DNA of 64,000 nucleotides from Acidaminococcales bacterium (GTDB lineage Bacteria; Bacillota; Negativicutes; Acidaminococcales; JAISLQ01), in the NCBI GenBank assembly GCA_031290885.1, contig JAISLQ010000075.1:41670-105669 (forward strand), written 5' to 3'. The position numbers and the translations under genes were made by a program. Numbering within the stretch: position 1 is the first letter of the stretch; each line of letters begins with the position of its first letter. Of the stretch, positions 2,060 to 24,976 are shown in pieces. Below the pieces are notes generated by a model. That model did not search any database. It was not told where the DNA came from and saw only the letters and a list, made by a program, of their open reading frames with translations.

Positions 2060-2180
2060 AAAAACAATTCGCTCAAAAGCCGCGAAAAGCGCGAAGGCGA
2101 GGAAAGAATCATCCCTATGTTTTGCCTATCGCAGGGCGGCAATTTTTCTTGCGAATCTTATCCGTGTCCCGGGGCCGGCA

Positions 2181-2813: not shown

Positions 2814-2898
2814 TTTGACAAACACATCCTTTTCTTTTTTTACTATGTCATTATAAAAAATAGTCAGGACGGCGTATTGGCTGCGAGTTCTGCGGCGA

Positions 2899-2925
2899 CA
2901 TAACAAACATAACAAACATAACAAA
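2899..2925. repeat. perfect tandem repeat CATAACAAA x3
   Basis: Read directly at 2899-2907, 2908-2916 and 2917-2925, about 90 bp upstream of the recombinase start. Confidence 0.9.
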
Positions 2926-2950
2926 TTAGATTATAGTGCGGTTTTCGCGG

Positions 2951-2994
2951 AAAAGCCAACGCGACACAATGGCCATTGTGTCGCGTTGGCTTTT
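2951..2994. terminator. bidirectional hairpin terminator between folC and the recombinase gene
   Basis: AAAAGCCAACGCGACACAATGG/CCATTGTGTCGCGTTGGCTTTT is a perfect 44-nt palindrome flanked by A-run and T-run. Confidence 0.6.
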
Positions 2995-3034
2995 CCTTTG
3001 TTCCCCTGCCGGAGGATTTTTTGCGAGGCGTTTC

Positions 3035-4336
3035 TCAGGGCGCCGCATCCCCTCTTGCCGACTGGCTTTTCCAAATGCTTTTGGCCTGGCCGGCCAGATA
3101 CAAAGAGCCGGCGATACAGACCGCCCCGTCCTCCCCCGCGTCGGCTTCCGCTTGCCTAAGGGCGTTTTCCAAGTCATCGGCTACCGAATTTTTGCCCCGG
3201 CTGTATTTTACGATTTCGTCCGGGCTGGCCGCCCGCGCGCTGCTGTCCGCCGGCACCGCGATCAAGGAGTCTTCTTCGCCCACCAGTTCTTCGACTATGC
3301 CTTTTATATCTTTGTCTTTCATTATGCCCAGCACGAAAGAAATCCTTTTGCCCGGGCAGTATTTGTTGAGCGCCGCCCGCAGCGCGATCGCGCCGCTGAG
3401 GTTATGCGCGCCGTCCAATATTACGCAGGGCGCTTTGGAATAAAGCTCCAACCGCCCGGGCCATTTTACCGTCTCGAGCCCCTTTTGCATGGAAGCGACG
3501 GTTATTTCCGGATGTTTGGCGCACAAAAGCCTTGCCGCCATAACCGCCAGGGCGGCGTTGGTCACTTGGTGGTCGCCGCCCAGTGCCAATTTAAAATTGG
3601 CCACAAAATCGCCGCTTCGGAAAATGAAGCGCTGTTGCGTCAAGTCGCCGCCCAGCCCGATCGCCGTAAAATCCGAGCGGAATATATGAATGGGGCAGCG
3701 CAGGGAGGCCGCCTTGTCTATCAGCGTATTGAGCGCGACGCTTTCCGCCGCGGTTACGACCGGCACGCCGGGTTTGATGATGCCGGCTTTTTCCTGCGCG
3801 ACGTTTTCTATCGTTTCGCCCAAATATTCTATATGGTCAATCGCCACATTGGTAATAACGGAACACTCGGGCGTTATCACGTTGGTCGCGTCCCACCGGC
3901 CGCCCATGCCTACTTCCAGCACGGCGGCGGCAATCCCGGCCTTTTGGAAAAGCCGGAAGGCGGCGGCGGTAACCAGTTCAAACTGGCTGGGTTCCTCAAG
4001 CTCCTCGCCGGCCTCCTTCGCCGCTTGCGCCACCGCGCCGACGGCTTCGCCGAATTCCTCGTCGGTAACGTCGCGCCCGCAGATGTTTATGCGTTCGTTC
4101 CACTTCTCCAAGTGCGGGGAAGTGAACTTGCCCACCTTGAGCCCGGACGCCTCAAATATGCTGGTCAGCATGCTGGTTACCGATCCTTTGCCGTTGGTGC
4201 CGGTCACATGCACATAAAAGATCCCTTCCTGCGGCCGGCCGAGCTTGTCCAGCAAGATCTTTATCCGCTCCAGCCCAGGTTTTATCCCGTGGTTGCCTTT
4301 CCCTGTCAGATAGTTTAAAGTTTCCTGGTAATTCAT
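3035..4336 (-). CDS. folC: bifunctional folylpolyglutamate synthase/dihydrofolate synthase
   Basis: 433 aa. It has a HVTGTNGKGS P-loop and overall Mur-ligase/FolC layout, and sits directly downstream of valS as in many Bacillota. Confidence 0.9.
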   Translation of the reverse strand: MNYQETLNYLTGKGNHGIKPGLERIKILLDKLGRPQEGIFYVHVTGTNGKGSVTSMLTSIFEASGLKVGKFTSPHLEKWNERINICGRDVTDEEFGEAVGAVAQAAKEAGEELEEPSQFELVTAAAFRLFQKAGIAAAVLEVGMGGRWDATNVITPECSVITNVAIDHIEYLGETIENVAQEKAGIIKPGVPVVTAAESVALNTLIDKAASLRCPIHIFRSDFTAIGLGGDLTQQRFIFRSGDFVANFKLALGGDHQVTNAALAVMAARLLCAKHPEITVASMQKGLETVKWPGRLELYSKAPCVILDGAHNLSGAIALRAALNKYCPGKRISFVLGIMKDKDIKGIVEELVGEEDSLIAVPADSSARAASPDEIVKYSRGKNSVADDLENALRQAEADAGEDGAVCIAGSLYLAGQAKSIWKSQSARGDAAP

Positions 4337-9027: not shown

Positions 9028-11359
9028 TGGCGTCTTCCAGGGCCAGGGCGAGCACCTCGTCCATATGACTTACCGGCACAAACTCAATGCTCTTTTTTAT
9101 GGTGGGCGGTATGTCCTCAAGGTCTTTTTCGTTGGCGACCGGCAGCACCACTTTTTTTACGCCGTAGCGGTGGGCGGCCAGCACTTTTTCCTTGATGCCG
9201 CCGACCGGCAGCACCCGGCCGCGCAGCGTAATTTCGCCCGTCATGGCCATGTCCGCGTATACCCTGCGCCCGGTAAGGGCGGAAGCCATGGAAGTCGCCA
9301 TAGTGATGCCGGCGGAAGGCCCGTCTTTCGGGATGGCCCCTTCCGGCAGATGCACATGTATGTCAAGCTCTTTGTAAAAATCGCCCGGTATCTTCAATTC
9401 ATCCGCCTTGCGCCTGATATAAGTATAGCCGGCGCGGGCGGATTCTTTCATCACGTCGCCCATCTGCCCGGTCAGCAGCAAATCGCCCTTGCCGCGCGTT
9501 ACCGACGTTTCCACTTCCAGCACTTCGCCCCCGACGCTGGTCCAGGCTAGGCCGGTGGCCACGCCGGTTTCCGGCTCGGCCCGTTTTTCGGTTTGCGTGT
9601 ATTTGGGCACGCCGAGATATTGGGGGATGTTTGAAGCCGTTACGGACACGCCGCTTTTTTTGTTTTTCTTCAAAACCCTGCGCGCGGCCTTGCGGCAGAC
9701 GGAAGCGATGCCGCGCTCCAATTCCCGCACGCCGGCTTCGCGCGTATATTCGCGGATGATACGGATGACGGCCTTTTCCGAAATGCCGATAAGTCCGCCG
9801 TCAAGTCCGTGCTGCTTTATCTGTTTGGGCATGAGGTAGCGCGAAGCGATCTCTTTTTTCTCCAACTCCGTGTACCCGGGAATGGATATGACCTCCATCC
9901 GATCGAGCAGCGGCTTGGGTATGGGATGGGTAATGTTGGCCGTTACTATCCAGAACACTTTGGAAAGATCAAAAGGCAGTTCCACATAATGGTCGCTGAA
10001 AGCGTTGTTCTGCTCCGGATCCAGCACTTCGAGGAGGGCGGAGGACGGATCTCCCCTGAAATCGCTGCTCAACTTGTCCACCTCATCCAAAAGAAAGACC
10101 GGGTTTTTAAAGCCGCAATTGCGCATCCCCTGGATGATGCGGCCGGGCAGAGAACCCACATAAGTACGGCGGTGGCCGCGTATTTCGGCTTCGTCCTTTA
10201 TCCCGCCCAAAGAAGCGCGGGTAAACTTGCGCCCCATGGCCCGCGCCACCGATTTGGCGATGGAAGTCTTGCCGACGCCGGGCGGCCCGACCAGGCACAA
10301 AATGGGCCCTTTCATGTCGGCGGTCAAGCTGCGCACTGCCAGATATTCAAGTATGCGTTCCTTGACCTTTTCCAGGCCATAATGATCCTCGTCCAATATC
10401 TTCTCCGCCCTGGCCATGTCCAAGTTGTCCTCGGAAACGGCCGTCCAGGGCAGGGAGAGCAGGATGTCTATATAAGAGCGGACTACCGCGCTTTCGGAAG
10501 TCATTGCCGGCATTTTTTCCAGGCGGCCTATCTCCTTGCCTATCTTTTCGCGCACTTCCTCCGGCAGCCCGGCGGCGCTAAGCCGCTGGCGGAATTCCGC
10601 CGTTTCGGCCAGCCGGTCGTCCTTGTCTCCAAGCTCTTTGTTTATCGCCTTTATCTGCTCGCGCAGATAATACTCCTTCTGATTTTTCCCCACTTGCTTG
10701 CGCACCCGCTGGGAGATTTTCTTTTCGATTTCCAATATTTCCAGTTCGCGGCTCAAAATATCATACAACAAATTAAGCCGTTCGCTTACATTTATCGCGT
10801 TGAGCAGTTTTTGCTTGTCGTCAATGTTGATGGCGAGATGCCCGGCGATAATGTCGGACAGCCGCCCCGCCTCCTCCACGCCCAAAATGGACAGGAGTGT
10901 GTCGGACGGTATTTTCTTGCCGTTCTTTACCCATTGCTCAAACTGCTCGCCCACCAGCCTTTTCAATGTCTCTATTTCGGGCGTGGCAAAATCTTCCTCA
11001 AAATGCTCCGTAACCTTTACCGCTATATAATCGCCGCTGTCGTCAAACTCCCTGATGCTGGCCCGGCGCATGCCCTCGACCAATATCCGCGTGCCGCCGC
11101 CGGGCAGCTTTTGCAGCAATTTTATCTGCATGAGCGTACCTACCGGGAAAATGTCGGCAAGGCCCGGATTTTCCGTATGGGCTTCCTTTTGCGTGGCCAG
11201 CATGATAAGGCGGTCATTGAGCATGGCCGCTTCGAGGGCTTTGATCGATTTGTCCCGGCCGACGTCCAAATGAATGATCATGGTCGGGAAAACCAATATT
11301 CCGCGCAAGGGCAGGAGTGGGTAAGCGCGTTGATTGTCTCCGTTATTGATAATGGTCAT
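9020..11359 (-). CDS. lon: ATP-dependent Lon protease
   Basis: GPPGVGKTS Walker A and the PKDGPSAG serine-protease motif. The listed ORF begins at a TTG; the ATG two codons in (11357-11359), with GGAG 9 nt upstream, is preferred. Confidence 0.96.
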
Positions 11360-11397
11360 TGTCAATCATCTCCAATGCATAGCCGCAGAAAACGCGG

Positions 11398-11429
11398 AAA
11401 AAGGGGGGAAAGGACGCAGCCCTTCCCCC
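11398..11429 (-). terminator. intrinsic terminator-like hairpin about 35 nt upstream of lon
   Basis: The minus strand reads GGGGGAAGGG-CUGCGU-CCUUUCCCCC (10 bp including one G.U), followed by CUUUUU. Confidence 0.5.
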
Positions 11430-11672
11430 GAACCGGCCATAAAGCCAGATTTTGGCGCATTCCCCCAGCGGGCGCCGCAGGAAAAACATATATTTATGCG
11501 CCATATTTGAAAGATGCGGCATCTCCAAGCGGCTCACTGCGGCTGTCCTTTGTCAATAATGCCGCCGTTTCCATATCCGCAGCCCCTATTTCATTTTCGG
11601 CGTTGAACGCCCCTTCCATGCAGCGACCGGCCCGGCGCCGGAGAAAGCACGGCCCGCGCCGAAAGCCAGCGG

Positions 11673-12971
11673 CTACGCCGAAGCTTCCTTTTTCTTTTTG
11701 CTGCCCTCGTAAAGCAAAACAGGCTCGGCGCGTTTGAGCACGACCTCTTCGGTCACGATGCACTTGTTTATATCGCTGCGCGAAGGCACTTCATACATAA
11801 CGTTGCGCATTATGCTCTCAATGATCGACCTTAGCCCGCGCGCCCCCGTATTGCGCCGCAAAGCCTCCCGGGCGATGGCGGCCAGCGCGTCCTCGTTAAA
11901 TTCCAAATCGACTTTGTCCATGCGGAGAAATTTCTGGTATTGCTTGATCAGGGCGTTCCTGGGCTCCTTGAGTATGCTGATCAACGAGCCTTCGTCCAGC
12001 GCGTCCAATGTAACCACTACCGGCAGCCTGCCGACGAATTCCGGTATCAGGCCGTATTTCAAAAGATCCTCGGGCAGCACATATTTCAAAAGCTCGTCCT
12101 TGTTGCCGTCTTTCCTGCTTTTTATATCCGCGCCGAAACCCATGGTCTTCTTGCCGATGCGGTTGCTGATGATGCCTTCAATGCCGGCGAAAGCGCCGCC
12201 GCAGATGAACAGTATATTGGTCGTGTCCATCTGCAGGAACTCCTGATGCGGGTGTTTGCGGCCGCCCTGCGGCGGCACGCTGGCCACGGTGCCTTCCAAT
12301 ATCTTCAGCAGCGCCTGCTGCACCCCCTCGCCCGACACATCGCGGGTAATGGAAGGGTTCTCGGATTTCCTGGCTATTTTGTCTATTTCGTCTATGTAGA
12401 TTATGCCGCGCTCGGCCTTGTCGACTTCAAAATCCGCCGCCTGGATCAACTTGAGCAATATATTCTCGACATCCTCGCCCACGTAACCGGCTTCGGTCAA
12501 AGAAGTGGCATCGGCGATCGCGAACGGGACATTGAGCAGCCTGGCCAAGGTCTGCGCCAGCAGGGTCTTGCCGCTGCCGGTAGGCCCGAGCATGATTATA
12601 TTGGACTTTTGCAATTCCACCTCGTCCGCCTTGCCCTTGTCGCGTTTGCCGGCGCCGGCGCCGTATCCGCCGCTGATCCGCTTGTAGTGGTTATAGACGG
12701 CGACCGACAGCGATTTTTTCGCTTCATCTTGGCCGACCACGTACTGATCCAGGATCGCCTTTATTTCCCGCGGTTTGGGCAGCGCCCTGCTGTCGACGGA
12801 CTTGGACTGCTCGCTCCGCTCTTCGTCGATTATCTCGTTGCACAGATCTATGCATTCGTCGCAAATATAGACGTTCGGCCCTGCGACCAGCTTTTTCACC
12901 TGTTCCTGCAGCTTGCCGCAGAAAGAACATTTAAGCTGCCCTTTGTCGTCGCCGCCGTTAAACTTAATCAT
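11673..12971 (-). CDS. clpX: ATP-dependent Clp protease ATP-binding subunit ClpX
   Basis: 432 aa with a CSFCGK...CDEC zinc ribbon and GPTGSGKT Walker A. Confidence 0.97.
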
Positions 12972-12993
12972 ACTGCATCACCTCATTTTCAGC

Positions 12994-13593
12994 TTACGCT
13001 TTGCCCGGCTTTTCGCCCCGGGCAATGACCTTGTCAATCAATCCATATTCCTGGGCCGCCTGCGCCGACATGAAATAATCGCGTTCGGTGTCCTGCCGGA
13101 TCTTTTCAAGCGGCTGGCCGGTATGTTTAACCAATATCTCGTTGCCGACCTCGCGCAGGCGCAATATTTCCCGCGCCTGTATGTCTATGTCGGTCGCCTG
13201 GCCCTGCGCGCCGCCCAGCGGCTGGTGGATCATTATTCTGGAATAAGGCAGCGAATAACGCTTGCCGGCCGCGCCCGCCGTCAGCAAAAGCGCCCCCATG
13301 CTGGCGGCCATGCCGATGCAAATCGTGGAAACATCGGATTTTATATACTGCATAGTGTCATAAATCGCCAAGCCGGCCGTTACGGAGCCGCCCGGGCTGT
13401 TTATATAAAGATGTATGTCCTTGTCCGGCTCCTCCGATTCCAAAAAAAGCAGCTGGGCAATGACAAGGTTGGCCATCATGTCGTGTATTGTCCCGCCGAT
13501 AAAAACAATGCGGTCTTTCAAAAGGCGGGAATAAATATCGTAAGCCCGTTCGCCGCGGTTTGACTGCTCGACAACAATCGGCACAAAGTTCAC
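12994..13593 (-). CDS. clpP: ATP-dependent Clp protease proteolytic subunit
   Basis: 199 aa with [13 protein letters not shown] and the GMAASMG active-site Ser. It has a GTG start with AGAGGGG upstream. Confidence 0.97.
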
Positions 13594-13596
13594 TGT

Positions 13597-14922
13597 TTAA
13601 CGCCCCTCTTCCGTAGCTTCGCCCTGTTCCCCGGCGTCCTCGGCGCTTGCGTCAATTATAAACCGGGCGGCCTTTCGCCGCAAAACCGACGCGGCAAGCT
13701 GCTTGATGTTGCCGGTCTTCACCAAGGCCTTTTTGACCTCGTCCAACGGCTGTTTGTACTGGGCGGCCATCCGCTCAATCTCTTTTGTCAATTCCTCTTC
13801 GCTTACTTCAATGCCTTCCGCTTCGGCGATCGCGTCCATGACCAGTTCGGCCTTGATGTCTTCCAGCGCGGCCTCTTTTTTTTCTTCGCGCAGCTCTTCC
13901 AAAGTCTTGCCCATATACTTAAGATAATCGTCAAAATTCAGCCCGCGCCGTTTCAAGCTGTTGGCCGTGTCCATGATCATCTCGGACGCGCGCTCCTGCG
14001 CCATCGCGTCCGGTATCGTCAAAACCGCGCCGTCCACCGCAGCTTTCAGGATATTATTTTCATATTCGTTCCGCGCGGACAGCAGCGCCGCTTTTTCCAA
14101 GTTTTCCCGGCAATTTTCCCGCCACTGATCAATGGTGAAAAAATCACTGTTGTCTTTGATAAATTCATCCGTAACCTCCGGCGCCTGGCGGCGTTTCACG
14201 TCATGCACCGTTACGCTGAACTGCGCCTCTTTGCCGGCCAGTTCCGCAGCAGGATAGTCGCCCGGAAAATTGACCTTTATCACGCGCTCCTCGCCCGCCC
14301 CCGCGCCCAAAAGCTGATCCTCGAACCCGGGGATGAAACTGCCGGAGCCGATTTCCAGCGGATAACTCTTGCCCTCGCCGCCATTAAAAGGCTGCCCGTC
14401 AATCGTGCCTTTAAAGTCAATTACGGCGAAATCGCCCTTGCCCAACTTAGCGCCTTCCACGACCACCATGGAAGATTTTCGCTCGCGCAGTTTTTCCAGC
14501 GCATCGTCAATGTCCGCGCCGGTGATTTCGCGAACGGCCTTTTTCGCGCTCAGGCCTTTGTATTGTCCCAACTGAACCTCAGGCTTCACCGCGACCGTTA
14601 CCTTAAAAACCATGTCCCGGTCTTCCGCCAGCGTCTCAACGTCCACGCTCGGACGGCTGACCGGCTGTACGCCCGTTTGCTCCAGCGCCTCAACATAGCT
14701 TTTTTGCGCTAAGATATCAAAGGCTTCTTCCTGGATCGCCGGCAATCCCACGCGCTTTTCCACAATTTTGCGCGGTGCCTTGCCCTTTCTGAACCCCGGC
14801 ACGGACAACTTTCCGGCAATATTGCGCCAGGCTTTGTCATAAGCCTTCCCCACGACGGCCTGCGGCACGGTGATGGTTAAAACTACCTGGTTGTTTTCCA
14901 ATTTTTCCGTTGACACATTCAT
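13597..14922 (-). CDS. tig: trigger factor
   Basis: 441 aa with the GFRKGKAP ribosome-binding motif and an FKBP-type middle domain. The tig-clpP-clpX order is conserved. Confidence 0.95.
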   Translation of the reverse strand: MNVSTEKLENNQVVLTITVPQAVVGKAYDKAWRNIAGKLSVPGFRKGKAPRKIVEKRVGLPAIQEEAFDILAQKSYVEALEQTGVQPVSRPSVDVETLAEDRDMVFKVTVAVKPEVQLGQYKGLSAKKAVREITGADIDDALEKLRERKSSMVVVEGAKLGKGDFAVIDFKGTIDGQPFNGGEGKSYPLEIGSGSFIPGFEDQLLGAGAGEERVIKVNFPGDYPAAELAGKEAQFSVTVHDVKRRQAPEVTDEFIKDNSDFFTIDQWRENCRENLEKAALLSARNEYENNILKAAVDGAVLTIPDAMAQERASEMIMDTANSLKRRGLNFDDYLKYMGKTLEELREEKKEAALEDIKAELVMDAIAEAEGIEVSEEELTKEIERMAAQYKQPLDEVKKALVKTGNIKQLAASVLRRKAARFIIDASAEDAGEQGEATEEGR

Positions 14923-15185
14923 TATATAAAAACGGCCCCCTCAATTGCTGAACTGTGCGCCAAAAACGACGGAAACCCGGCGCGCGCGCCTGACCGCGCG
15001 GCAAACCAATGTCCGGCGGCGGTCAAATCTCCCGTTCAATATCAGCCGCATTCAACTTATATGTCGGCTTTTTCGATTGACATTACACGACTGCTTATAA
15101 TATCATAGCACAAACGCCCGTCAATGACAAGACGGGCATTGCGTTTTCCGATTTTTGCCAGGCTTCGGCGCCGGATTCTGCCCGT

Positions 15186-16196: not shown

Positions 16197-17039
16197 GTGT
16201 TCGCGCGGCCTATGCAGGGGGTGCATTGCGCGATGGCTGCCGACTATGGGAAGCGCCGTTGGGAAATTTTTACCGGCGGACAGTTGAAGCTTATCGGCGC
16301 CGCCCTGATGGTATTTGACCATTTGCGCCAAATGTTTTCGGCGCACGGCGCCCCCGAATGGTTTTACTGGCTTGGCCGGCCGGCCGCGCCGCTCTTTGCC
16401 TTTTTATGCGCGGAAGGCTTTGCCCATACGCATAGCCGGGGCAAATACACGCTGCGCTTGCTGATCGGCTTTGAATTCATGAACGCGGCCTCCAACCTGC
16501 TCGCCCGCGCTTTCCCAAGCCACAGCGTTGTTTTGCTCAACAACATTTTTGAAACCTTTCTGCTCGCTGTTGTTTATATGTGGCTCACGGACAAACTGCG
16601 CCGGGAAATTGCGGAAAAAAATTACCGCAAAGCGTTCCTTTCTGCCCTGCTCATGCTCCTGGCCGCGGCGGCGGGCATCGCCGCCTTCAATCTGCTATTG
16701 GATCCGGCCGCCCTGCCGTCCGTGCCGCTTTGGCTGAAAATACTCTTGCTCCGGGCGATCCCCAACCTGGCGGTTACCGAGGGAGGATTTGTTTTCGTAC
16801 TAATGACCGTACTTTTTTACCTTTTCCGCGCACACCGCCCTTGGCAAATATTGACGCTCCTTTTGACCGGCGCCCTCTGTTTTTGCTTAGGCGCGGAGGC
16901 GCAGGCCCTCATGTCCTTCGCCGCGGTTTTCATGCTTTTGTATAACGGCGAACGGGGCAAGGCCGGCAAATACTTTTTCTACATTTTCTATCCGGCGCAC
17001 ATCTACCTTTTCTATTTGGCCGCCTGGTATGCCAAATGA
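16197..17039 (+). CDS. TraX-family membrane protein
   Basis: 280-aa hydrophobic ORF with LKLIGAALMVFDHL near the N-terminus, typical of the TraX family. The true start is probably a few codons inside (ATG at 16212 or 16233). Confidence 0.65.
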   Translation: MFARPMQGVHCAMAADYGKRRWEIFTGGQLKLIGAALMVFDHLRQMFSAHGAPEWFYWLGRPAAPLFAFLCAEGFAHTHSRGKYTLRLLIGFEFMNAASNLLARAFPSHSVVLLNNIFETFLLAVVYMWLTDKLRREIAEKNYRKAFLSALLMLLAAAAGIAAFNLLLDPAALPSVPLWLKILLLRAIPNLAVTEGGFVFVLMTVLFYLFRAHRPWQILTLLLTGALCFCLGAEAQALMSFAAVFMLLYNGERGKAGKYFFYIFYPAHIYLFYLAAWYAK

Positions 17040-17215
17040 AGCCTCCGGCCACGGCAAAAGCTTATGTTTTCGCCGTCCGCGCAAAAACGCGGCCATGTCG
17101 CTGTCGCCGCCGCAAACGAAAACACATTCCGTGAAATCGCCCGCGAGAATGGGCGCCGAACAGAAAAAACGCGGCAACGCTCAGGCCACGGCCGGGAAAG
17201 AAGCGGCGCGGCTTG

Positions 17216-17244
17216 TTGACAAACCAGCGTCTTTTCATTATACT
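17216..17244 (+). promoter_or_regulatory. promoter TTGACA-17 nt-TATACT upstream of tRNA-Ser
   Basis: Hexamers at 17216-17221 and 17239-17244 with a counted 17-nt spacer. The tRNA starts about 55 nt downstream. Confidence 0.5.
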
Positions 17245-17303
17245 GTTATGTGCCACGGCTTAAGCGTACCGTAGCGCAATTTAATATCCGCCTTGGCGGC
17301 CAC

Positions 17304-17393
17304 GGAGAGATGTCTGAGTGGTTGAAGGAGCACGCCTGGAAAGCGTGTGTAGTCGAAAGGCTACCGAGGGTTCGAATCCCTCTCTCTCCGCCA
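17304..17393 (+). tRNA. tRNA-Ser (anticodon GGA)
   Basis: GGAGAGA/TCTCTCC acceptor stem, CACGC-CTGGAAA-GCGTG anticodon arm, long variable arm, GGTTCGAATCC T-loop and an encoded CCA. Confidence 0.95.
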
Positions 17394-17446
17394 CTATGGA
17401 CAAATGCGAACCCGGCTCGCGCGTTTATCGCCGGGAAGTCGTTCGC
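17390..17446. repeat. direct repeat copy 1 (att-like; starts with the GCCA 3' end of the tRNA)
   Basis: GCCACTATGGACAAATGCGAACCCGGCTCGCGCGTTTATCGCCGGGAAGTCGTTCGC. Confidence 0.9.
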
Positions 17447-17495
17447 GGTAGTGTTTCAATTAGACTTTAATAAATGATAGGGAAGTATATTTTTA

Positions 17496-18209
17496 ATGTT
17501 TGTCGACGCAAGAGACCTTTCCCTTGATGAGATAGAAAACATTGAAAAACTGACTCTTCGTTGGCTTGTCCAAGCAACAATGGATTTTGGCTTTGATGCC
17601 TACGATATTTTCTATTATTCACCCGATAGCGTCAAGGATGTTGCAGAAGACATTACCCGTGAAATTGTTGACCGACTTCCAGGGTACAATACTACACAAC
17701 GAATATTCGGCACTGTGGATTATAAAAAAGCTCGCTACATAATCTTGCCCAACCAAATTGTAAGGCAGGCTCTCTTTGTTGACTCTAAAGCTGAGAAAAC
17801 GAATCAAACAGCAACACTTCAAATTTCACAAACATCTCTCGAAATTCGTCAGATGCGGAGTGGCTCAATTGTGAACGTACAAGGCAGATTGCCAGCAATT
17901 TATCCCCATGACAATAACAATTATTTAAGTACGACTCTTCTTCTGCACTACTGTTACGAAGATATTGAGAATCGACATTTTCTCAAAGATATTACAGTAT
18001 GCTGCGTGCCAAATGGTTTGTTACAGGAACGTTATAATCCAACACCAGAAAGAACTTTTTGGGTTGCCGGTCGAAACGCACCTTCGTTAGGAGAGGAGTT
18101 TCGCACAAGGATTAGTTTTGCGCGCTTAATTGCGCTAACTCCTTGGAGGGTTCAACGAATAAATATCATTCGCGAGGAAACAAAATTATCGCATTCTTGG
18201 CAGGAGTAG
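17496..18209 (+). CDS. type II restriction endonuclease candidate (PD-DxK fold, SfiI-like spacing)
   Basis: 237 aa. D75 ... D96-S-K98 (VDY ... FVDSKAEK) gives a PD-(D/E)xK layout. It lies immediately upstream of, and is translationally coupled to, a methyltransferase gene, and its composition is AT-rich. Confidence 0.55.
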   Translation: MFVDARDLSLDEIENIEKLTLRWLVQATMDFGFDAYDIFYYSPDSVKDVAEDITREIVDRLPGYNTTQRIFGTVDYKKARYIILPNQIVRQALFVDSKAEKTNQTATLQISQTSLEIRQMRSGSIVNVQGRLPAIYPHDNNNYLSTTLLLHYCYEDIENRHFLKDITVCCVPNGLLQERYNPTPERTFWVAGRNAPSLGEEFRTRISFARLIALTPWRVQRINIIREETKLSHSWQE

Positions 18210-18216
18210 GGGGGCT

Positions 18217-19215
18217 ATGAAATATCTTGATGTAAATCGGGTATATTGCGGTGACGCGAGAGACTTACTGCCAAAAATTTATCCAAACTCAATTTCACTG
18301 AGCGTTTGGTCGCCACCTTATCATGTGGGTAAAGACTATGAAAAAACGATGACCTATGGTGAGTGGGTCAATTTATTGTCTATCGTAATAGAGTTGCATT
18401 TTAACATTTTAAAACCAGGCGGATTTTTAGCGATAAATATCGCAGATATATTATGCTATAAAGACGGATCTATGCCTCAAATTATGGCCGAGAATGTGAG
18501 TAGGCGTAAAGTTTCGATTACTAAAGAACAGATTCTTGAAGCATGGTCACAACACGCGACTTATTCACGAAAGCAAATTGCTGAATTGATGGGGTGCAGC
18601 GAACAGACAATTGATAGAAGAATAAACGGCAACAATGTCCGTGGCGGCAAATATTCTCCGCAAACTAGAGTGAAACTTGCTGGCAATATTCTTGAAGATG
18701 CAGCATACAAGAGTTCATTATATCTTTATGATCGTCGTATTTGGGTAAAAGATCCCGCTTGGGAGAATAGTAGGTGGCATACTATATCTTATCGGGCCAT
18801 TGACGAATTTGAATACGTCTATATTTTCTGGAAGCCAGGCATTACCACTATAGATCGTTCCAGACTTAGCAAGGATGAGTGGATAAACTGGGGGTCTCGC
18901 GCAGTTTGGAATATTGCATCTGTAAGGGCGAATGATAATCACGAGTCAAAATATCCGATTGAACTGCCTCGACGTTTGATTCAATTACTAACTGTTCCAG
19001 GCGAAACAGTTCTTGATTGTTTTATTGGAAGCGGCACAAGTGCTGTTGCCGCAATAATTGAAGATAGAAATTATATCGGCATTGACAAAGAGCCTAAATC
19101 TGTGCATTTAACTAATTTAGCGTGCAAAGATGCATTTGCAAATAAAGTTACGATAGAAAACGCTCGAATGGAAGGCGAAAACCATTTTAACAAGCAGGCC
19201 GCGAAGCGGACTTAA
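18217..19215 (+). CDS. beta-class DNA N4/N6 methyltransferase (SPPY motif IV before FxGxG motif I)
   Basis: 332 aa with SPPY at aa 32-35 and DCFIGSGTSAVAA near the C-terminus. An HTH-like insert lies between them. Confidence 0.85.
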   Translation: MKYLDVNRVYCGDARDLLPKIYPNSISLSVWSPPYHVGKDYEKTMTYGEWVNLLSIVIELHFNILKPGGFLAINIADILCYKDGSMPQIMAENVSRRKVSITKEQILEAWSQHATYSRKQIAELMGCSEQTIDRRINGNNVRGGKYSPQTRVKLAGNILEDAAYKSSLYLYDRRIWVKDPAWENSRWHTISYRAIDEFEYVYIFWKPGITTIDRSRLSKDEWINWGSRAVWNIASVRANDNHESKYPIELPRRLIQLLTVPGETVLDCFIGSGTSAVAAIIEDRNYIGIDKEPKSVHLTNLACKDAFANKVTIENARMEGENHFNKQAAKRT

Positions 19216-19217
19216 CG

Positions 19218-19238
19218 GAAAACTCAAAATGAGTTTTC
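19218..19238 (+). terminator. weak hairpin after the methyltransferase gene
   Basis: GAAAACTCA-AAA-TGAGTTTTC, with no clear T-tail. Confidence 0.3.
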
Positions 19239-19348
19239 AGAGGGTGTTAGGATTCGCCCTTATTCCCGATGGTATGCCCGCGATTGTGCCACAGGATGTT
19301 TTTAAGCGGGTGCAGGAGCGAACGGAGAAGATGAAGCGGCAGCCGTAA
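19229..19348 (+). pseudogene. short fragment resembling an internal segment of a large serine recombinase
   Basis: The 39-codon ORF ends ...IPDGMPAIVPQDVFKRVQERTEKMKRQP-stop. The (h)IVxxxxFxxVQ pattern is recalled from serine-recombinase 'recombinase' domains. It has host-like G+C. Confidence 0.3.
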
Positions 19349-19400
19349 GAGCGCTCCATATCAGCGATTTTCGCTGTTCGCATTTGGACGGCAATGCCCT

Positions 19401-19457
19401 GCCACTATGGACAACCGCGAACCCGGCCCGCGCGTTTATCGCCGGGAAGTCGTTCGC
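19401..19457. repeat. direct repeat copy 2 (att-like), which doubles as the tRNA-Ser terminator stem
   Basis: GCCACTATGGACAACCGCGAACCCGGCCCGCGCGTTTATCGCCGGGAAGTCGTTCGC, followed by TTTTGTTTTT. Confidence 0.9.
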
Positions 19458-19470
19458 TTTTGTTTTTAAT
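19414..19470 (+). terminator. intrinsic terminator (GCGAAC CCGGC ... GCCGG ... GTTCGC + T-run)
   Basis: Nested stems inside repeat copy 2. Only this copy retains the TTTTGTTTTT tail. Confidence 0.6.
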
Positions 19471-19505
19471 CTTGCCTAAGCGCTTGCGCCCTTGTGTCTT
19501 TTACG

Positions 19506-19534
19506 TTGCCCTTATACCTTGTGCATGATAAAAT
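19506..19534 (+). promoter_or_regulatory. promoter TTGCCC-17 nt-TAAAAT with a TG extension
   Basis: Hexamers at 19506-19511 and 19529-19534, with TGA immediately 5' of the -10. Confidence 0.45.
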
Positions 19535-19583
19535 GAATTAGGCATTGGATGATAACGTATCGAAAGCGCAGGAGGTGTGCTTG

Positions 19584-20525
19584 GTGGGGTTTACATATAT
19601 AGATTTATTTGCGGGCATTGGCGGCTTCCATCAGGCGGCCGATGCTCTTGGCGGCGAGTGTGTTTTTGCAAGCGAAATTGATGCAGAAGCTAAGAGAGCA
19701 TATGAAGCGAACTATGGCCTTGCGCCGCATGGAGACATCACGAAAATTATTGCAGACGATATACCTGACCACGATGTGCTATTTGCTGGGTTCCCTTGTC
19801 AACCATTTAGCATTATTGGGAGCAGGCGCGGTTTCGACGATATTCGGGGAACTCTGTTTTTTGAAATCGCCCGCATACTTGAAGGAAAAAAAAATAAGCC
19901 GCAATTGTTCATATTGGAAAATGTTAAACAATTGAGCCGCCATAATAAGGGAAAGACCTTACAAACCATAATTGAAACATTGGAGCAACTCGGATATAAA
20001 GTTAAACATGACATTCTCAATGCTTTAGATTTTGGGTTGCCTCAAAAACGCGAAAGAACGATTATCGTGGGATTCCTAGACCAAAATGTTTCGTTCGCTT
20101 TTCCCGCGGAGAAGACATTGGGCAAGCTTGAAGATGTCTTGGAACCGAATGAAACGGTCGATTCTAAATTTTTTGCCAGTGAACGGATTATAGAAAAAAG
20201 ATTGACAAAACACAGGAGCGAGCATTGCCCTAGCATTTGGCACGAAAACAAAAGTGGCAACATTACGAGTTATCCGTACTCCTGCGCTTTGCGGGCTGGC
20301 GCGTCTTATAACTATTTGTTGGTGAATGGCAAACGGCGTTTGACTCCGCGCGAAATGTTGCGGTTGCAGGGTTTCCCGAATACGTTCAAAATCGTTTGTA
20401 ATGACAGCCAGACTCGCAAGCAAGCAGGCAATGCAGTTCCTGTAAATGTTATAAAAGCTGTGCTAAAGGATGCCCTTTATGCCCAGGCCGAGGTTAAGAG
20501 ACAATCAAAGGAGAGAGCCATTTGA
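19584..20525 (+). CDS. dcm: DNA (cytosine-5)-methyltransferase
   Basis: FAGIGGF (motif I), FPCQPFS (PC motif IV), ENVKQL and QAGNAVPVNV. The listed ORF starts at TTG 19545, but AGGAGG at 19570-19575 favours the TTG at 19581 or the GTG at 19584. Confidence 0.9.
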   Translation: MGFTYIDLFAGIGGFHQAADALGGECVFASEIDAEAKRAYEANYGLAPHGDITKIIADDIPDHDVLFAGFPCQPFSIIGSRRGFDDIRGTLFFEIARILEGKKNKPQLFILENVKQLSRHNKGKTLQTIIETLEQLGYKVKHDILNALDFGLPQKRERTIIVGFLDQNVSFAFPAEKTLGKLEDVLEPNETVDSKFFASERIIEKRLTKHRSEHCPSIWHENKSGNITSYPYSCALRAGASYNYLLVNGKRRLTPREMLRLQGFPNTFKIVCNDSQTRKQAGNAVPVNVIKAVLKDALYAQAEVKRQSKERAI

Positions 20526-20544
20526 GCTTTATCCCCTTGGCCAA

Positions 20545-20712
20545 GTGCCAGACGAGATTATAGTTGGAATAGGCAAATGGATAACATATAGGCATGCCGT
20601 AGGGCAATCCGACATTGACGGCGGCGACTGGGGCGATATCTTTGCAAGAGCAATAGGCGGAGAACATCTTGGCGCTCCGCTTGGGCTTGCCGATGTTTGG
20701 CATGGTTGCCCA
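20545..20712 (+). pseudogene. 5' remnant of a gene downstream of dcm, probably the cognate restriction endonuclease (truncated)
   Basis: An AT-rich in-frame stretch (VPDEIIVGIGKWITYRHAVGQSDIDGGDWGDIFARAIGGEHLGAPLGLADVWHG) breaks off where composition switches to host-like. The rest of listed ORF 20470-21012 runs through a terminator and into the next gene. Confidence 0.3.
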
Positions 20713-20760
20713 TATTGTAAACACGCGAGCATTCGCCCCGAATCCAATCAAAAATATTGG

Positions 20761-20813
20761 TTTTTTCGCCCCGCGCCATCGGCCGCAAGCGGCGATTGCG
20801 CGGGGCGAAAAAA
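20761..20813. terminator. bidirectional intrinsic terminator
   Basis: TTTTTTCGCCCCGCGC ... GCGCGGGGCGAAAAAA; perfect arms with flanking T and A runs. Confidence 0.65.
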
Positions 20814-20851
20814 CCCAAAAAGCAAAACCATGAACACGGGGAGGGCGGCAA

Positions 20852-22129
20852 ATGGCAAACAACCGATTCCCGCGCCAACGGAAAATTATCGCCGGAACAA
20901 TATTGGGAACCATCATTGTTGTTTTCACCAGCTTTGTATTATATGGGGGCATGAAAGCCAGAGGGCTCGTCAAAGAATATATAGCCTCCGAATTTTTAGC
21001 CGGGGAATTTGATTTCGGCGAAGTCAGCGGCGTGTTCAGCGGCGACGTCGTAATAAGGGACATTTTATGGAAAGACCCGGAGGGAAACCCTGTCGTCAAA
21101 ATACCGAGGGCAAAAGCGTATGTGCGCCTGCGGGACATATTGTTCGGCAATTTCGGCGCCAATTCCCTCCGCCGGGTCGAGCTGTCCGAGCCGGAGATAT
21201 ATCTTAAATACGACGAAAAAGACGGGCTGAATATATTCCGTCTGCTGAAAACAAGCACGCCCGCCCCTGCAAGCGGCGAAAAAAAATCAAGTCCTTCCGA
21301 AAACGGGCAAAAGCAAAAGGCGGCCAAATATCAGACGACGCTTGAAATCGACAACGGCTTCACGCTCATAAACAATCAGCGGATAAACATCAATGGCGAA
21401 ATCGTGTTCAGCGACGAAAAAGAGGACTTAAATTTAAAAATTGACTCAAACAAGATTAAAATAGACGCTTTGCTGCCGGGGCTTGGCATATACGACGAAT
21501 TGCTTTTCACCATTGACGCCAAAGGCACGCTGGACAAACCGCAAGCAGAAGGGGAAATATCCATGCCTAAGTTAAATGCGGCCCAGCTGGCTTTGACAAA
21601 CTTGAAAGGCCACTTTGCTTTCAGCGATGGGAACATCAAAGTTTCCGACGCTTCCGCCAATGTATACGGCGGTTCCGTAAAAGGCGGCGGCAACATCAGA
21701 TGGGCGGACAGATCCTTTGAATTTGACGCCGCCGGTTCCGGCATCAACAGCGGAGAATTGAGCGATTCATTGGACGCGCCTGTTTCTTTCAACGCGCACA
21801 TCAGCGGGACAAGCGATTTCAATTCGCTTGTTGCGTCCGGCCCCTTTGCCGTTGGCGCGGGACAAGCCAAAGGCGTCCCGTTCACTTCCATAACCGGCAA
21901 TTTTTACAAACGCGGCGGCAACATGACCTTCAGCAACTTAAACGTGTCAACCGCTGTGGGCAACTTAAAAATCAAGCGGGTCTTTGTAAATGAAAACAAT
22001 AAAATTTCGGTGGACTTCAGCAATCTTTTGGATGACGCCAACGCCGCGCTGAAAAAGCAAGCGGACGCGGCGACCCGAAAAGGGATCAACAAAACATTGG
22101 ATTCTATAAAAAAGGGTTTAAAATTTTAA
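20852..22129 (+). CDS. membrane-anchored AsmA/TamB-like beta-rich protein (hypothetical)
   Basis: 425 aa with an N-terminal TM helix (IIAGTILGTIIVVFTSFVLYGG), then a repetitive G/S/N/D-rich beta-type sequence reminiscent of AsmA-family proteins. GGGGAGGG RBS. Confidence 0.45.
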   Translation: MANNRFPRQRKIIAGTILGTIIVVFTSFVLYGGMKARGLVKEYIASEFLAGEFDFGEVSGVFSGDVVIRDILWKDPEGNPVVKIPRAKAYVRLRDILFGNFGANSLRRVELSEPEIYLKYDEKDGLNIFRLLKTSTPAPASGEKKSSPSENGQKQKAAKYQTTLEIDNGFTLINNQRININGEIVFSDEKEDLNLKIDSNKIKIDALLPGLGIYDELLFTIDAKGTLDKPQAEGEISMPKLNAAQLALTNLKGHFAFSDGNIKVSDASANVYGGSVKGGGNIRWADRSFEFDAAGSGINSGELSDSLDAPVSFNAHISGTSDFNSLVASGPFAVGAGQAKGVPFTSITGNFYKRGGNMTFSNLNVSTAVGNLKIKRVFVNENNKISVDFSNLLDDANAALKKQADAATRKGINKTLDSIKKGLKF

Positions 22130-22840
22130 GCATCCGGGCGCAAACAATCCAAAAAACATCTGCCGGGAAATCCCTGATGGCTGTTTGCGGCGCTAAGCCG
22201 GATATTCCCCCTCCCGGCCCTTTGCCGAAAAAGGCGGCGCGGCCTATGGCGGAGCAAATCAACGACAGCCCGCGCCCAAGAGATTATCTCCGCAAGCCCT
22301 TTGCGTACGGGCTTGCGCGGCGGAATCGCCCCAAAAGCCCCCCTGCGGCTACGGCCATGCAGCACTTGGAAAACGCGTTGTTTAAAACAACGACATGGAT
22401 ACTGTTCGCAGATTAAAACCATACTATCTTTGCGCTCTTGGCCATACCAAAACGAATTGGAAAAATGACGCATTGAACAACAAGGGCGCCCGGGCGATTC
22501 TTGCTTTGCCGGCTCCGGCCGGCAGCATGCGCCCGGCGGCGCTTCTTTTTTTGCCTTCAGGCGTTTTCCAATCGGCTTATCGGTTTGTCTGTGCTTGCCA
22601 ATATGTCCGCCGACAAATTACAGGACGGCTCTCCGCCAAGCTTTTCCCCCTTCGGATGGGGCAGTTGCGCTTTCAATCGGCGGCACTTTTTGCCTGATTA
22701 TAATTTACGGCAATTTGGCCGCATGGCTTTCCCGCTTCCGGCAAAAAAGCCTGCCCATTATTTCTCCGGCAAAAAAAGGGATACGGCGGCTATGCGGCGA
22801 ATATGGCAATATTTGGGTATGTCCGCAAAGGAGGCTCTTC

Positions 22841-24976
22841 ATGGAAAAGGAGATGCTTTTTGCTCTTGATATAGGGACGCGCAGCGTGGTCGGCATCGTC
22901 GCCGAAAAAGAGGACAAAACCATCAACATCATCGCCGTCGACCGCCAAGAACACGTTACCCGCGCCATGCTGGACGGACAGATACACGACGTGCCGCAGG
23001 TGGCGCATACCATCGGCGAAGTGCGCGACCGCCTGGCCAAAAAGACCGGCCATGCCCTGACCAAAGCCTCGGTTGCGGCAGCCGGGCGCGCCCTGATCAC
23101 CATAACCGCCTCATCCGAGCTTGATACCGCCAACATCCTTTCGCTGGACGCGGAAACTGAACAAATGCTGGTCCTTTCCGCCGTGCAGTCGGCTCAGCGC
23201 GGCCTGGCGGCCGACTGCCGGGCGAACGATCCCACCGGCTACTATTGCGTGGGCTATTCGGTCATAGAATTCAAATTGGACGGTTCGCGCCTGTCAACCC
23301 TTATCGGACAAAGGGGGCGGACGGCTTCGGTAACCATCATAGCGACCTTTCTGCCGCGGCCGGTCATAGACTCCATGCAATCCGCCTTGTCCAGCCTGGA
23401 TTTGGAAATAGGCACCATCACCCTGGAGCCGATCGCCGCCATAAATGTCCTCATACCGCCCACCATGCGCCACCTGAACCTGACCTTGGTGGACATAGGC
23501 GCCGGCACTTCCGACGTTGCCATAACTTCGGGCGGATCGGTCATAGGCTTCGGCATGGTGCCCTGCGCCGGCGACGAAGTAACCGAAGCCCTGTCGCAAA
23601 AATATCTTCTGGATTTTAATGTGGCGGAAAAGATAAAAAGGCAGCTCAACGAAAAGCCCAAAAAAATCGAAATGCACGACGTCCTCGGCGGCGTCATACA
23701 CTCCACCCCCAAGGAAATATTGGACAGCATCCGCCCGACCGTCCAAGAATTGGCCGATCTGATTGTCAAAGAAATACTTTCCCTCAACAACAACAACAAC
23801 CCGCAGGCCATACTGCTCATCGGCGGCGGCGCGCTCACGCCCATGCTGCAGGAACTGATCGCCGAGACCATCGGCATGCCGCCGGAAAAAGTCGCCATCC
23901 GCCTGCCTGCGCCCACCCTTCTCCTGCCCAGCATACCGGACGAGCTTTATTCGCCCGAGGCGATAACCCCGCTCGGCATACTTTGCCTCAGCAACAGCGA
24001 CCACCTTAATTTCATAACTATCAGGATGAACAAGCAAGTGCACCGCCTGTTCAACCTCGGCAGCCTGAAAATATCCGATGCCCTGCTGTCGAGCAACATT
24101 GACATCAACAGCATAAAAGGGCGCCCGGGGCTTGGCATAACGGTGGAAGTAAACGGCCAGACCAAATTTATCCCCGGCACTTACGGCACGCCCGGCTCGC
24201 TTGAGCTGAACGGCAAACCGGCGGCCTTAGACGACAAACTTAAAGACGGCGACAAATTAAAAGTAGTAAAAGGCGTTGCCGGCAAACCGCCGAAAAGCCA
24301 TGTCCTCGACATCGTTGACTGTTCCAACATGGGCAACGTCTACGTCAACGGCAAAAAATACCCCCTGATCCCGGTCATCCTCTTGAACGGCGAACCGGCC
24401 GGCCCGTCCTCGCGCCTGTCCGACCGGGACAAAATAGAAGTCCTGCCGCCGGACAACATCGGCCGCCTGCTTGACCAGGCAGGCGTGGATTATGAAGACG
24501 ATGAATTTGAATACGCGGTGAACAAAAACATCATCGGCTACAAATGCCCGCGGCCGATAACCCTGAACGGGCAGAAAGCCAGCCTTTTGTCGCCGGTAAA
24601 ACCGGGGGACGTCATCGGCGTGGAAAAAGGCGAGCGCCCGACATTGGAACAATTGCTCGCGCTGGATGTCGTAACCGTGGATACCATCGAAGTATTCTTT
24701 AATGACGCCCCGGTCAGGATCGCCCGCTCCTTTAAAGAATTTACCGTCAACGGCAAATCGGCCAAGCCCTCTTACGTCCCCAAAGAAACCGACGCGATCG
24801 CTTTCCGGCTGGGCAAAAAAACCCCGATGATTAGCGACGTGCTTTTGGCCGGCGAATTTGACCCGCAAAAAATAGCCAAAGAACGCAAAAACATTGAAAT
24901 CCTCCTAAACGGCGAAAAAACCGAATTCACCGCGCCGGTAAAAAACGGCGACAAAATAACCGTTACCGTCCGCTGA
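22841..24976 (+). CDS. FtsA/actin-fold ATPase fused to repeated ThiS/MoaD-like beta-grasp modules
   Basis: The start is at the ATG after AAAGGAGG. The N-terminal half has ALDIGTRSVVG (phosphate 1), LVDIGAGTSDV (phosphate 2) and LIGGGALTP (adenosine) actin-fold motifs. The C-terminal about 320 aa holds about six xNGxx...(D/N)GDxIxV units. Confidence 0.7.
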   Translation: MEKEMLFALDIGTRSVVGIVAEKEDKTINIIAVDRQEHVTRAMLDGQIHDVPQVAHTIGEVRDRLAKKTGHALTKASVAAAGRALITITASSELDTANILSLDAETEQMLVLSAVQSAQRGLAADCRANDPTGYYCVGYSVIEFKLDGSRLSTLIGQRGRTASVTIIATFLPRPVIDSMQSALSSLDLEIGTITLEPIAAINVLIPPTMRHLNLTLVDIGAGTSDVAITSGGSVIGFGMVPCAGDEVTEALSQKYLLDFNVAEKIKRQLNEKPKKIEMHDVLGGVIHSTPKEILDSIRPTVQELADLIVKEILSLNNNNNPQAILLIGGGALTPMLQELIAETIGMPPEKVAIRLPAPTLLLPSIPDELYSPEAITPLGILCLSNSDHLNFITIRMNKQVHRLFNLGSLKISDALLSSNIDINSIKGRPGLGITVEVNGQTKFIPGTYGTPGSLELNGKPAALDDKLKDGDKLKVVKGVAGKPPKSHVLDIVDCSNMGNVYVNGKKYPLIPVILLNGEPAGPSSRLSDRDKIEVLPPDNIGRLLDQAGVDYEDDEFEYAVNKNIIGYKCPRPITLNGQKASLLSPVKPGDVIGVEKGERPTLEQLLALDVVTVDTIEVFFNDAPVRIARSFKEFTVNGKSAKPSYVPKETDAIAFRLGKKTPMISDVLLAGEFDPQKIAKERKNIEILLNGEKTEFTAPVKNGDKITVTVR

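Follow-up and report, generated by a model that had tools for sequence, protein, structure and literature searches.

A possible two-cassette array behind a tRNA-Ser gene: an SfiI-family restriction-modification pair and a decayed dcm module preceded by copies of one 57-nt repeat

The window analysed here is the whole stretch of 64,000 nucleotides taken from an Acidaminococcales bacterium (assembly GCA_031290885.1, contig JAISLQ010000075.1, positions 41,670 to 105,669 of the forward strand); coordinates without a locus name refer to it. At the 3' end of its tRNA-Ser(GGA) gene lie an intact SfiI-family restriction-modification (R-M) pair and, further downstream, the remains of a dcm-R-vsr module headed by a C5-cytosine methyltransferase gene, dcm. 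Each of the two is preceded by a copy of one 57-nt repeat. The locus holds two foreign modules, the intact pair and the decayed one, parted by the second copy. Our preferred reading, held with moderate confidence, is that they form a two-member tandem array of integrase-less cassettes, added to the 3' end of the tRNA gene by site-specific recombination. The sequence-only reading from which this analysis started had assumed a single insertion beside a native dcm gene. That view has to be given up, since dcm is itself foreign, of low GC content (0.445) and part of a decayed module, and the locus is better read as an array of two cassettes.

The repeat pair at the tRNA-Ser gene

The tRNA-Ser(GGA) gene (17304-17393, forward strand) is called by ARAGORN with its CCA encoded and scores 55.6 bits against Rfam RF00005 over 17304-17390. 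It remains intact, and the insert sits at its 3' end. Its last four nucleotides, GCCA, are the start of an attL-like repeat copy (17390-17446, forward strand) composed of GCCA, a 12-nt spacer and a 41-nt palindromic unit, GCGAAC-N29-GTTCGC; these 4 of the 57 nt are tRNA sequence and the rest lies outside the gene. The second copy (19401-19457, forward strand), which in the preferred reading would be both the attR of the R-M cassette and the left trailer of the dcm cassette, matches the first at 54 of 57 positions, with differences at repeat positions 15, 16 and 28. A weaker similarity runs for another 10 nt (17390-17456 against 19401-19467; 67 nt, 90%). The two copies are 1,954 bp apart. The 41-nt core occurs exactly twice in the window and not once in 100 shuffles.

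The copies are followed by different tails. Copy 2 alone has kept a T-tract, TTTTGTTTTT (19458-19467, forward strand), which completes with it an intrinsic-terminator-like structure; as RNA, the two are predicted to fold into a terminator-like hairpin closed by GGACAA/UUGUUU. Similar tails are found in L085 and L176, two of the 177 fetched loci (1.84 Mb in total; L numbers denote metagenomic and other contigs) with which the window was compared. Copy 1 carries GGTAGTGTTT instead, a degenerate T-tract (17447-17456, forward strand). The direct repeat, its GCCA opening at the end of the tRNA-Ser(GGA) gene and the confinement of the T-tract to copy 2 had all been described from the sequence alone, and all are recovered here. 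A promoter-like site, TTGACA-17-TATACT, lies 5' of the tRNA (17216-17244, forward strand; 11 of 12 consensus matches) and is the sole strong promoter match preceding the endonuclease gene. Since copy 1 no longer has a T-tract, transcription from the tRNA promoter probably reads through into the R-M pair.

With a GC content of 0.40, the segment 17447-19215 lies below both the DNA 5' of the site (0.56) and that beyond 22130 (0.53). Ordinary core genes flank the locus: those for valyl-tRNA synthetase, Lon, ClpX, ClpP, trigger factor and TraX, then the AsmA-like, FtsA-like and PrpF genes. No mobility gene or integrase is present among the annotated neighbours. Rfam searches of 17000-20000 and of the right end of L085 return nothing beyond the tRNA, and a third, degenerate repeat copy was looked for beyond dcm and not found.

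An intact R-M pair and a decayed dcm module

The first gene behind the tRNA encodes a type II restriction endonuclease of the SfiI/BglI family (17496-18209, forward strand; 237 amino acids; Pfam PF11487, 2e-58, 198 bits against a cut-off of 25). It aligns over residues 2-244 with the SfiI structure, PDB 2EZV, at E=1e-37, a match expressed by its E-value without a percent identity. The catalytic PD-(D/E)XK residues D75, D96 and K98 are present and are invariant in 28 homologues; we take them to correspond to D79, D100 and K102 of SfiI. An N-terminal truncation was suspected since the Pfam match begins at profile position 87. It is ruled out by the SfiI alignment, which starts at residue 2, and by the length of 237-243 amino acids that is typical of the family (more than 2,000 proteins).

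The methyltransferase gene follows (18217-19215, forward strand; 332 amino acids). Its product is a beta-class N4/N6 DNA methyltransferase (PF01555 N6_N4, 3e-33, 116 bits) whose SPPY motif lies towards the N-terminus and FxGxG towards the C-terminus. An internal helix-turn-helix (residues ~103-140), kept in relatives, is inserted between motif IV (SPPY) and motif I and may be regulatory or DNA-binding. The order endonuclease (R) then methyltransferase (M) is preserved in about 80 metagenomic loci. The SfiI-family R gene of L095 is broken by an insertion of about 275 bp (L095 3250-3525, between the equivalents of 17629 and 17631), which could be a small mobile element inactivating the endonuclease. 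The 64 kb contain 2 SfiI sites (GGCCNNNNNGGCC), where by our own estimate about 2 are expected from base composition; there is no avoidance signal. Homologues of the cassette DNA are absent from the phage collection, and the plasmids gave one match, to M alone.

Beyond copy 2 lies dcm (19584-20525, forward strand; the longest open reading frame (ORF) starts at 19545 and the called start is 19584), which is M.HhaI-like and aligns with M.HhaI end to end. It has a promoter-like site just 5' of it. Its closest relative, in L176, is 86% identical, and in both L176 and the Methylomusa-like locus L177 dcm heads a dcm-R-vsr module. The L177 locus has neither a tRNA gene nor a trailer, as we call the homologues of the repeat at other loci.

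The remainder of the window module is in pieces. An N-terminal remnant of the endonuclease partner (20494-20696, forward strand; about 68 codons), recognized by BLASTP and by blastn against L176, resembles the L176 protein at 61% identity over 120 amino acids (E 2e-45) and is near-identical to it over the first ~68 residues. It is followed by a 43-nt vsr remnant (20696-20738, forward strand), 84% identical to L176 3772-3814, inside the L176 Vsr gene. At the DNA level the homology with L176 covers 19571-20696 (dcm and about 68 endonuclease codons), jumps 719 bp, covers the 43-nt vsr piece and then stops. The alignment thus indicates that, compared with L176, the window module has lost about 0.7 kb by a deletion that fused the endonuclease remnant to the vsr remnant and left dcm as an orphan methyltransferase; by the same comparison dcm is evidently foreign, the head of a decayed dcm-R-vsr module. 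The decayed module is the tRNA-distal one, and the tRNA-proximal R-M pair is intact. The foreign segment presently ends, before the AsmA-like gene, at a 23-bp inverted repeat with A and T runs that resembles a bidirectional terminator (20759-20815). A 180-aa ORF at 20470-21012 is not accepted as a gene, being the endonuclease remnant reading on through a terminator, and a 277-aa antisense ORF is likewise rejected.

The trailer behind other tRNA-Ser genes

The 177 loci contain 12 tRNA genes, 5 of them tRNA-Ser, and all 5 tRNA-Ser genes carry the trailer. In the loci fetched through R and dcm homologues every tRNA gene is a tRNA-Ser gene, and tRNA-Ser is present only beside the closest relatives of the cassettes. 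It is a tRNA-Ser(CGA) in L083/L088 and L090, with R 84% and 81% identical to that of the window, respectively, and a tRNA-Ser(TGA) in L085/L086 (R 75% identical). In L176 a tRNA-Ser(GCT) is followed by trailer, T-tract and dcm-R-vsr, in a segment with a GC content of 0.40-0.45 as against about 0.60 for the host. Together with the GGA gene of the window this makes four tRNA-Ser isoacceptors on at least five distinct contigs, each with low-GC R-M DNA behind it. A search with a profile made from six trailers detects no copies elsewhere except copy 2 of the window and a second copy in L085 (L085b).

In the aligned copies the order of parts is constant: GCCA, a spacer of about 12 nt, GCGAAC (ACGAAC in L176), about 28 variable nt and GTTCGC (GTTCGT in L083). 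The spacer TTAGGAACAAAT occurs in both L090 and L176. Counted from GCGAAC to GTTCG, the unit has a length of 40 nt in both window copies and in L083/L088, L090 and L085b. It is longer in L176 (42 nt) and in the tRNA-adjacent copy of L085 (L085a; 50 nt). Across the six aligned sequences the palindrome feet keep their five inner pairs unchanged and vary at the outermost pair alone (L083, L176). The hairpin interior is variable, and several copies fold no better than shuffled sequence. Invariant feet with a free interior point to a protein-recognized site rather than to a plain terminator. The earlier description of the repeat as the tRNA terminator is therefore only partly sustained: copy 2 with its tail does fold like one, but the sequence is family-specific, has GCGAAC/GTTCGC feet and also occurs between cassettes.

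The limits of the common sequence can be placed closely. The acceptor 3' strands differ among the tRNAs, each matching its own 5' strand: the window has TCTCTCC, L176 CTTCTCC and the others CCTCTCC. The common sequence therefore starts no earlier than CTCC|GCCA, the point at which copy 2 starts. On the other side, the window and L090 agree exactly at the left junction, GTTCGC|GGTAGTGTTT. With blastn the window matches L083, L088 and L090 in one unbroken stretch (17365-19160) that starts in the tRNA T-arm, takes in the trailer and extends into R and M. L085 has a second trailer 5.2 kb 3' of its tRNA-Ser trailer, with the hairpin at 15015-15055 followed by TTTTGT. In a tree of R genes the tRNA-linked loci fall into two clades, mixed with unlinked ones, which implies repeated association with the site. 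In L083, L084, L089, L092, L095, L097 and L176, repeats flanking the R-M pair do not exceed chance level.

Some of these loci hold more than an R-M pair. Between its two trailers (9756-15070) L085 has the pair, with a GC content of 0.38-0.40, then a PNP_UDP_1-family gene and a gene for a methionyl-tRNA synthetase (MetRS) of 543 amino acids; an S66 peptidase gene and a Dam-like methyltransferase gene lie beyond the second trailer. In L083 the foreign segment continues 3' of the pair behind tRNA-Ser(CGA) (2037-3149) with a 70-aa ORF and an AlbA_2/Schlafen-like gene, and a larger defence island may occupy the site there.

A recombinase relic and a shared 16-mer

A 39-codon ORF (19229-19348) lies between M and copy 2. 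Over residues 11-39 it is similar to large serine recombinases (E=3e-5 and 59% identity by tblastn in phage records), and the ORFs matched are full-length recombinases of about 530-590 amino acids with resolvase, recombinase and zinc-ribbon parts. The matching segment (19262-19339, forward strand; 26-29 codons, by tblastn and PHROGs) corresponds to the end of the "recombinase" domain and bears the motif IPxxIPAIVxxxxFxxVQ. A profile search of the ORF, proposed in the sequence-only reading, gave a mixed answer: it matches PHROG 95 "integrase" at E=0.03, but Pfam returns nothing, even at E=10. Judged by these matches the fragment is a genuine relic of a large serine recombinase, about 80 nt long, with deletions on either side. 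The nuclease, methyltransferase and recombinase-like fragment that had been placed between the repeat copies from the sequence alone are thus borne out by PF11487, N6_N4 and the tblastn match. Directly 3' of the M stop codon stands a perfect 9-bp inverted repeat, GAAAACTCA/TGAGTTTTC (19218-19238), and the ATG of the 39-codon ORF (19229-19231) falls at the junction of its loop and 3' arm; that start codon is therefore probably spurious. No further serine-recombinase-like sequence was found within the window.

The 16-mer TGTTCGCATTTGGACG (19375-19390, forward strand) ends 10 nt 5' of copy 2 and is a candidate for the element-side arm of an att site. Among the 177 loci and the window its exact sequence occurs twice, 5' of copy 2 and 5' of the second trailer of L085; we estimate the chance of a shared 16-mer in two stretches of ~200 nt at about 1e-5. 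Compared by eye, the 16-mer resembles a decayed tRNA T-arm or a Xer/dif arm only in part, and its identity in two genomes speaks against independent decay. The phage contigs with the closest serine recombinases show no att sequence like the trailer or the 16-mer. Scans of viral contigs for the 16-mer and for the left-junction 17-mer yield chance matches only, which lack the hairpin context.

Search for an empty site

The sequence-only reading had called for an empty site, in which tRNA-Ser is followed directly by the terminator and dcm. That order of tRNA-Ser, T-tract hairpin and dcm does exist in L176, but behind another isoacceptor (GCT), in a different organism and not as an orthologue; it is the sole empty-site analogue. 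Exact-protein look-ups of the window TraX, M, trigger factor and P0001 gave no entry, a 28-mer taken from the repeat has 0 matches in metagenome contigs, and a scan of genome contigs anchored on TraX returns relatives at no more than 50% identity. TraX relatives at 79% (L081) and 70% (L082) lie on short contigs in another gene neighbourhood with no tRNA-Ser downstream. TraX was dropped as an anchor for the orthologous site since L081 and L082 lack that tRNA-Ser.

The nearest named relatives of the TraX-family membrane protein (16197-17039) are in metagenome-assembled genomes labelled Clostridiales Family XIII, Synergistaceae and Treponema (loci L001-L080). Several relatives of the R-M pair and of dcm come from the same few metagenome projects, which suggests a shared habitat. 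Further downstream in the window (22595-24976), a 793-aa ORF of unusual architecture joins an FtsA/MreB-like ATPase core to C-terminal ThiS/Ub-Mut7C-like beta-grasp matches; its start codon is uncertain.

How the array may have formed

In the preferred reading the proximal cassette (17390-19400) would be the intact SfiI-family R-M pair. The distal one (19401 to ~20740) would be the HhaI-like dcm module, whose endonuclease and vsr partners were lost by deletion. Each cassette would open with the same sequence of ~57 nt, that is GCCA, a 12-nt spacer and a palindromic unit of ~40 nt. We infer that a circular form with one trailer recombined site-specifically with the tRNA-adjacent trailer, the crossover lying at or just 3' of ...CTCC|GCCA. 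The newcomer would have landed next to the tRNA and pushed the older trailer and the dcm cassette downstream. The two 57-nt copies would therefore be attL and attR. The resulting order would be tRNA, attL, intact R-M pair, recombinase relic, 16-mer, attR (the old attL) and decayed dcm module. The recombinase, possibly a large serine recombinase, would either have acted in trans or have been deleted since, and the relic and 16-mer just inside attR would be the remains of the element's recombination module.

Several points weigh against this scheme. None of the six trailer-bearing loci has an intact recombinase or integrase, and no orthologous empty site was found, the collections searched containing no close relative of the organism. 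For a tRNA-targeting integrase only 4 repeat nt inside the tRNA would be unusual, and canonical large serine recombinases leave a shared core of 2 bp, not 57 bp. L090 and L176 have the left copy only and show no counterpart of attR; a convergent aminoacyl-tRNA-synthetase gene lies some 250 nt beyond M in L090. The stretch that separates the R-M pair of L085 from its second trailer is host-like in GC content and includes the MetRS gene. Moreover, the copies resemble each other more closely within a genome than between genomes: a long spacer is common to those of the window, a short spacer and GCGAGGT to those of L085. This likeness equally fits duplication of a host sequence or homogenization within the genome. 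The interpretation of the repeats as an attL/attR scar, already proposed from the sequence alone, therefore stands in part. It gains from the homologous trailers at other tRNA-Ser genes, the order of tRNA-Ser, hairpin and dcm in L176, the 16-mer in L085 and the recombinase relic; the missing integrase and orthologous empty site, and the lone left copies of L090 and L176, count on the other side.

Other explanations

One rival dispenses with any recombinase. It assumes an ancestor with tRNA-Ser, one hairpin terminator and dcm, into which an R-M unit inserted while duplicating 57 bp of target. The insert does contain both R and M, is shorter than 20 kb, is flanked by repeats longer than 30 bp and lacks an intact mobility gene, as in the published definition of such events (PMC2853133). 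The near identity of the copies within the genome, beside trailers of other genomes that differ in the hairpin interior, speaks for this account, and L176 proves that the arrangement tRNA-Ser, trailer, dcm exists. Nevertheless we consider it unlikely. A non-specific insertion would not recreate the same site and junctions. Yet the left junction followed by R recurs behind another tRNA-Ser in L090, the right copy of L085 adjoins the same 16-mer, and the trailer stands at four isoacceptors in different organisms with foreign DNA always adjacent. The recombinase relic inside the insert is a further difficulty, and three mismatches in 57 bp imply that the duplication is old or that the copies have differed from the start.

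A second rival, which the sequence-only reading had offered as its alternative, assumes that the trailer is common to the tRNA-Ser genes of the lineage. The cassette would loop out in a RecA-dependent manner and re-enter other trailers, in the same genome or after DNA uptake, with no dedicated recombinase. Two copies of 57 bp at 95% identity with an exact run of 29 nt, as found here, suffice for low-frequency RecA recombination. The greater likeness of copies within than between genomes agrees with this route, as does the absence of an integrase from every locus examined; the mixture of linked and unlinked genes in two R clades would mean that the R-M pair has been shuffled repeatedly. However, the trailer would have to pre-exist at several isoacceptors in hosts with GC contents of 0.50-0.60, which itself needs a mobile explanation. 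The invariant feet around a free interior and the 16-mer outside the repeat are left unexplained, and the hairpin interiors are too divergent for exchange across genomes. We give this account the same low probability as the preceding one.

A broader form of the array reading is, in our estimate, slightly less probable again. In it, integron-like stacking would be general at the tRNA-Ser genes of uncultured anaerobes: defence cassettes with a ~57-nt GCGAAC-N28-GTTCGC trailer would be inserted by a trans-acting recombinase, possibly a large serine recombinase, the newest being driven by the tRNA promoter and the older ones decaying distally. If true, this tRNA-Ser stacking system would be a previously undescribed class of non-autonomous cassette.

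That the locus is an integron-like array in the stricter sense, with the 40-nt palindrome as an attC-like single-strand site and the tRNA-Ser 3' end in the role of attI, seems to us very improbable. The AAC...GTT feet are indeed conserved around a variable interior of roughly constant length, and the cassettes are stacked with the apparently newest beside the anchor. However, the feet [T/C]GCGAAC...GTTCGC[G/T] fit RYYYAAC/GTTRRRY at the AAC/GTT triplets only, and the repeat lies partly outside the palindrome. The annotated neighbourhood has no IntI-type integrase, the anchor is a tRNA gene among core genes, and the cassettes carry two or three genes, that of dcm with a promoter-like site of its own. 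Least probable is an assembly artefact that spliced a low-GC segment of another organism through the shared repeat: the source appears to be an uncultured organism and the insert differs much in GC content, but the copies differ at three positions, their longest exact shared run of 29 nt appears short for the final k-mers of an assembler, and the independent contigs L083, L088 and L090 show the same continuity of tRNA-Ser, trailer and R-M pair.

Significance and relation to known systems

How bare R-M pairs move between genomes with no mobility gene is a long-standing question, and this locus with its relatives offers a concrete, testable case. An R-M pair and an unrelated dcm module are both docked behind tRNA-Ser genes, four kinds in all, with a conserved trailer and junctions, the presumably newest member being intact and the older one decayed. 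If a trailer-recognizing recombinase exists, the trailer would be a minimal att site for a family of very small defence cassettes mobilized in trans, with R-M expression linked to the tRNA promoter. If the trailer is a native terminator instead, the locus would be a clear-cut case of long target duplication at a recurrent hotspot.

Staphylococcal cassette chromosome (SCC) and pseudo-SCC elements at rlmH (orfX) of staphylococci, and the cis-mobilizable elements (CIMEs) derived from streptococcal integrative and conjugative elements, have att-derived repeats, lack a recombinase of their own and accrete in tandem, and R-M cargo is common among them. The array at tRNA-Ser(GGA) is similarly recombinase-less, repeat-flanked and tandem at one site, with R-M cargo, its mobility being putative; it differs from these elements in target and recombinase lineage.

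Sublocation classes of tRNA-targeting islands with tyrosine integrases were reportedly defined by Williams in 2002. As in such classical islands, the insertion is at the tRNA 3' end, the tRNA gene stays intact, and attL/attR repeats can pass the gene end. Unlike them, our locus has no tyrosine integrase, its identity block lies almost wholly outside the tRNA, and the trailer serves several isoacceptors.

The cargo itself belongs to familiar systems. The endonuclease resembles SfiI (PDB 2EZV) over residues 2-244, with D-D-K, at modest identity, and dcm with its end-to-end M.HhaI match belongs with dcm-R-vsr modules of the M.HhaI type.

Nobusato and colleagues are said to have described R-M insertion with long target duplication in 2000. 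It was later characterized by R and M in the insert, a length below 20 kb, repeats above 30 bp that are not tRNA-like, no other mobile-element genes and a related empty site (Furuta, Abe and Kobayashi 2010; PMC2853133). Our locus shares the R-M pair, the lack of an intact mobility gene, both size limits and a GC content below that of the host. It departs from that class in that the same type of site and the same junctions recur in unrelated loci, and in the presence of a recombinase relic and a conserved flanking 16-mer, both of which point to site-specific recombination. The repeat starts with the GCCA of the tRNA.

The ssrA islands of Dehalococcoides are stacked in tandem at the 3' end of a tRNA-like gene and bounded by direct repeats, with a conserved 15-bp motif just 5' of each repeat (McMurdie et al. 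2011; PMC3146451). They are associated with a CcrB-like serine recombinase, and the many members that have no integration module were put forward as cis-mobilizable elements (PMC3146451). Tandem stacking, 3'-end repeats, a short motif 5' of the repeat, a link to serine recombinases (here a relic) and integrase-less members are all found in our case. The differences are that the target here is tRNA-Ser, in four isoacceptors, not ssrA; that the repeat is 57 nt, with 4 nt in the RNA gene and the rest a palindrome-bearing trailer; and that the cassettes measure 1.3-2 kb, with a 26-codon relic only and no intact recombinase at any locus. Each ingredient is already known: R-M pairs between long direct repeats, islands at the 3' ends of tRNA genes, accretion in tandem and derivatives that lack an integrase. 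What appears to be new is the family that combines a 57-nt trailer lying nearly all outside the tRNA, invariant palindrome feet, four tRNA-Ser isoacceptors and R-M cassettes of 1.3-2 kb.

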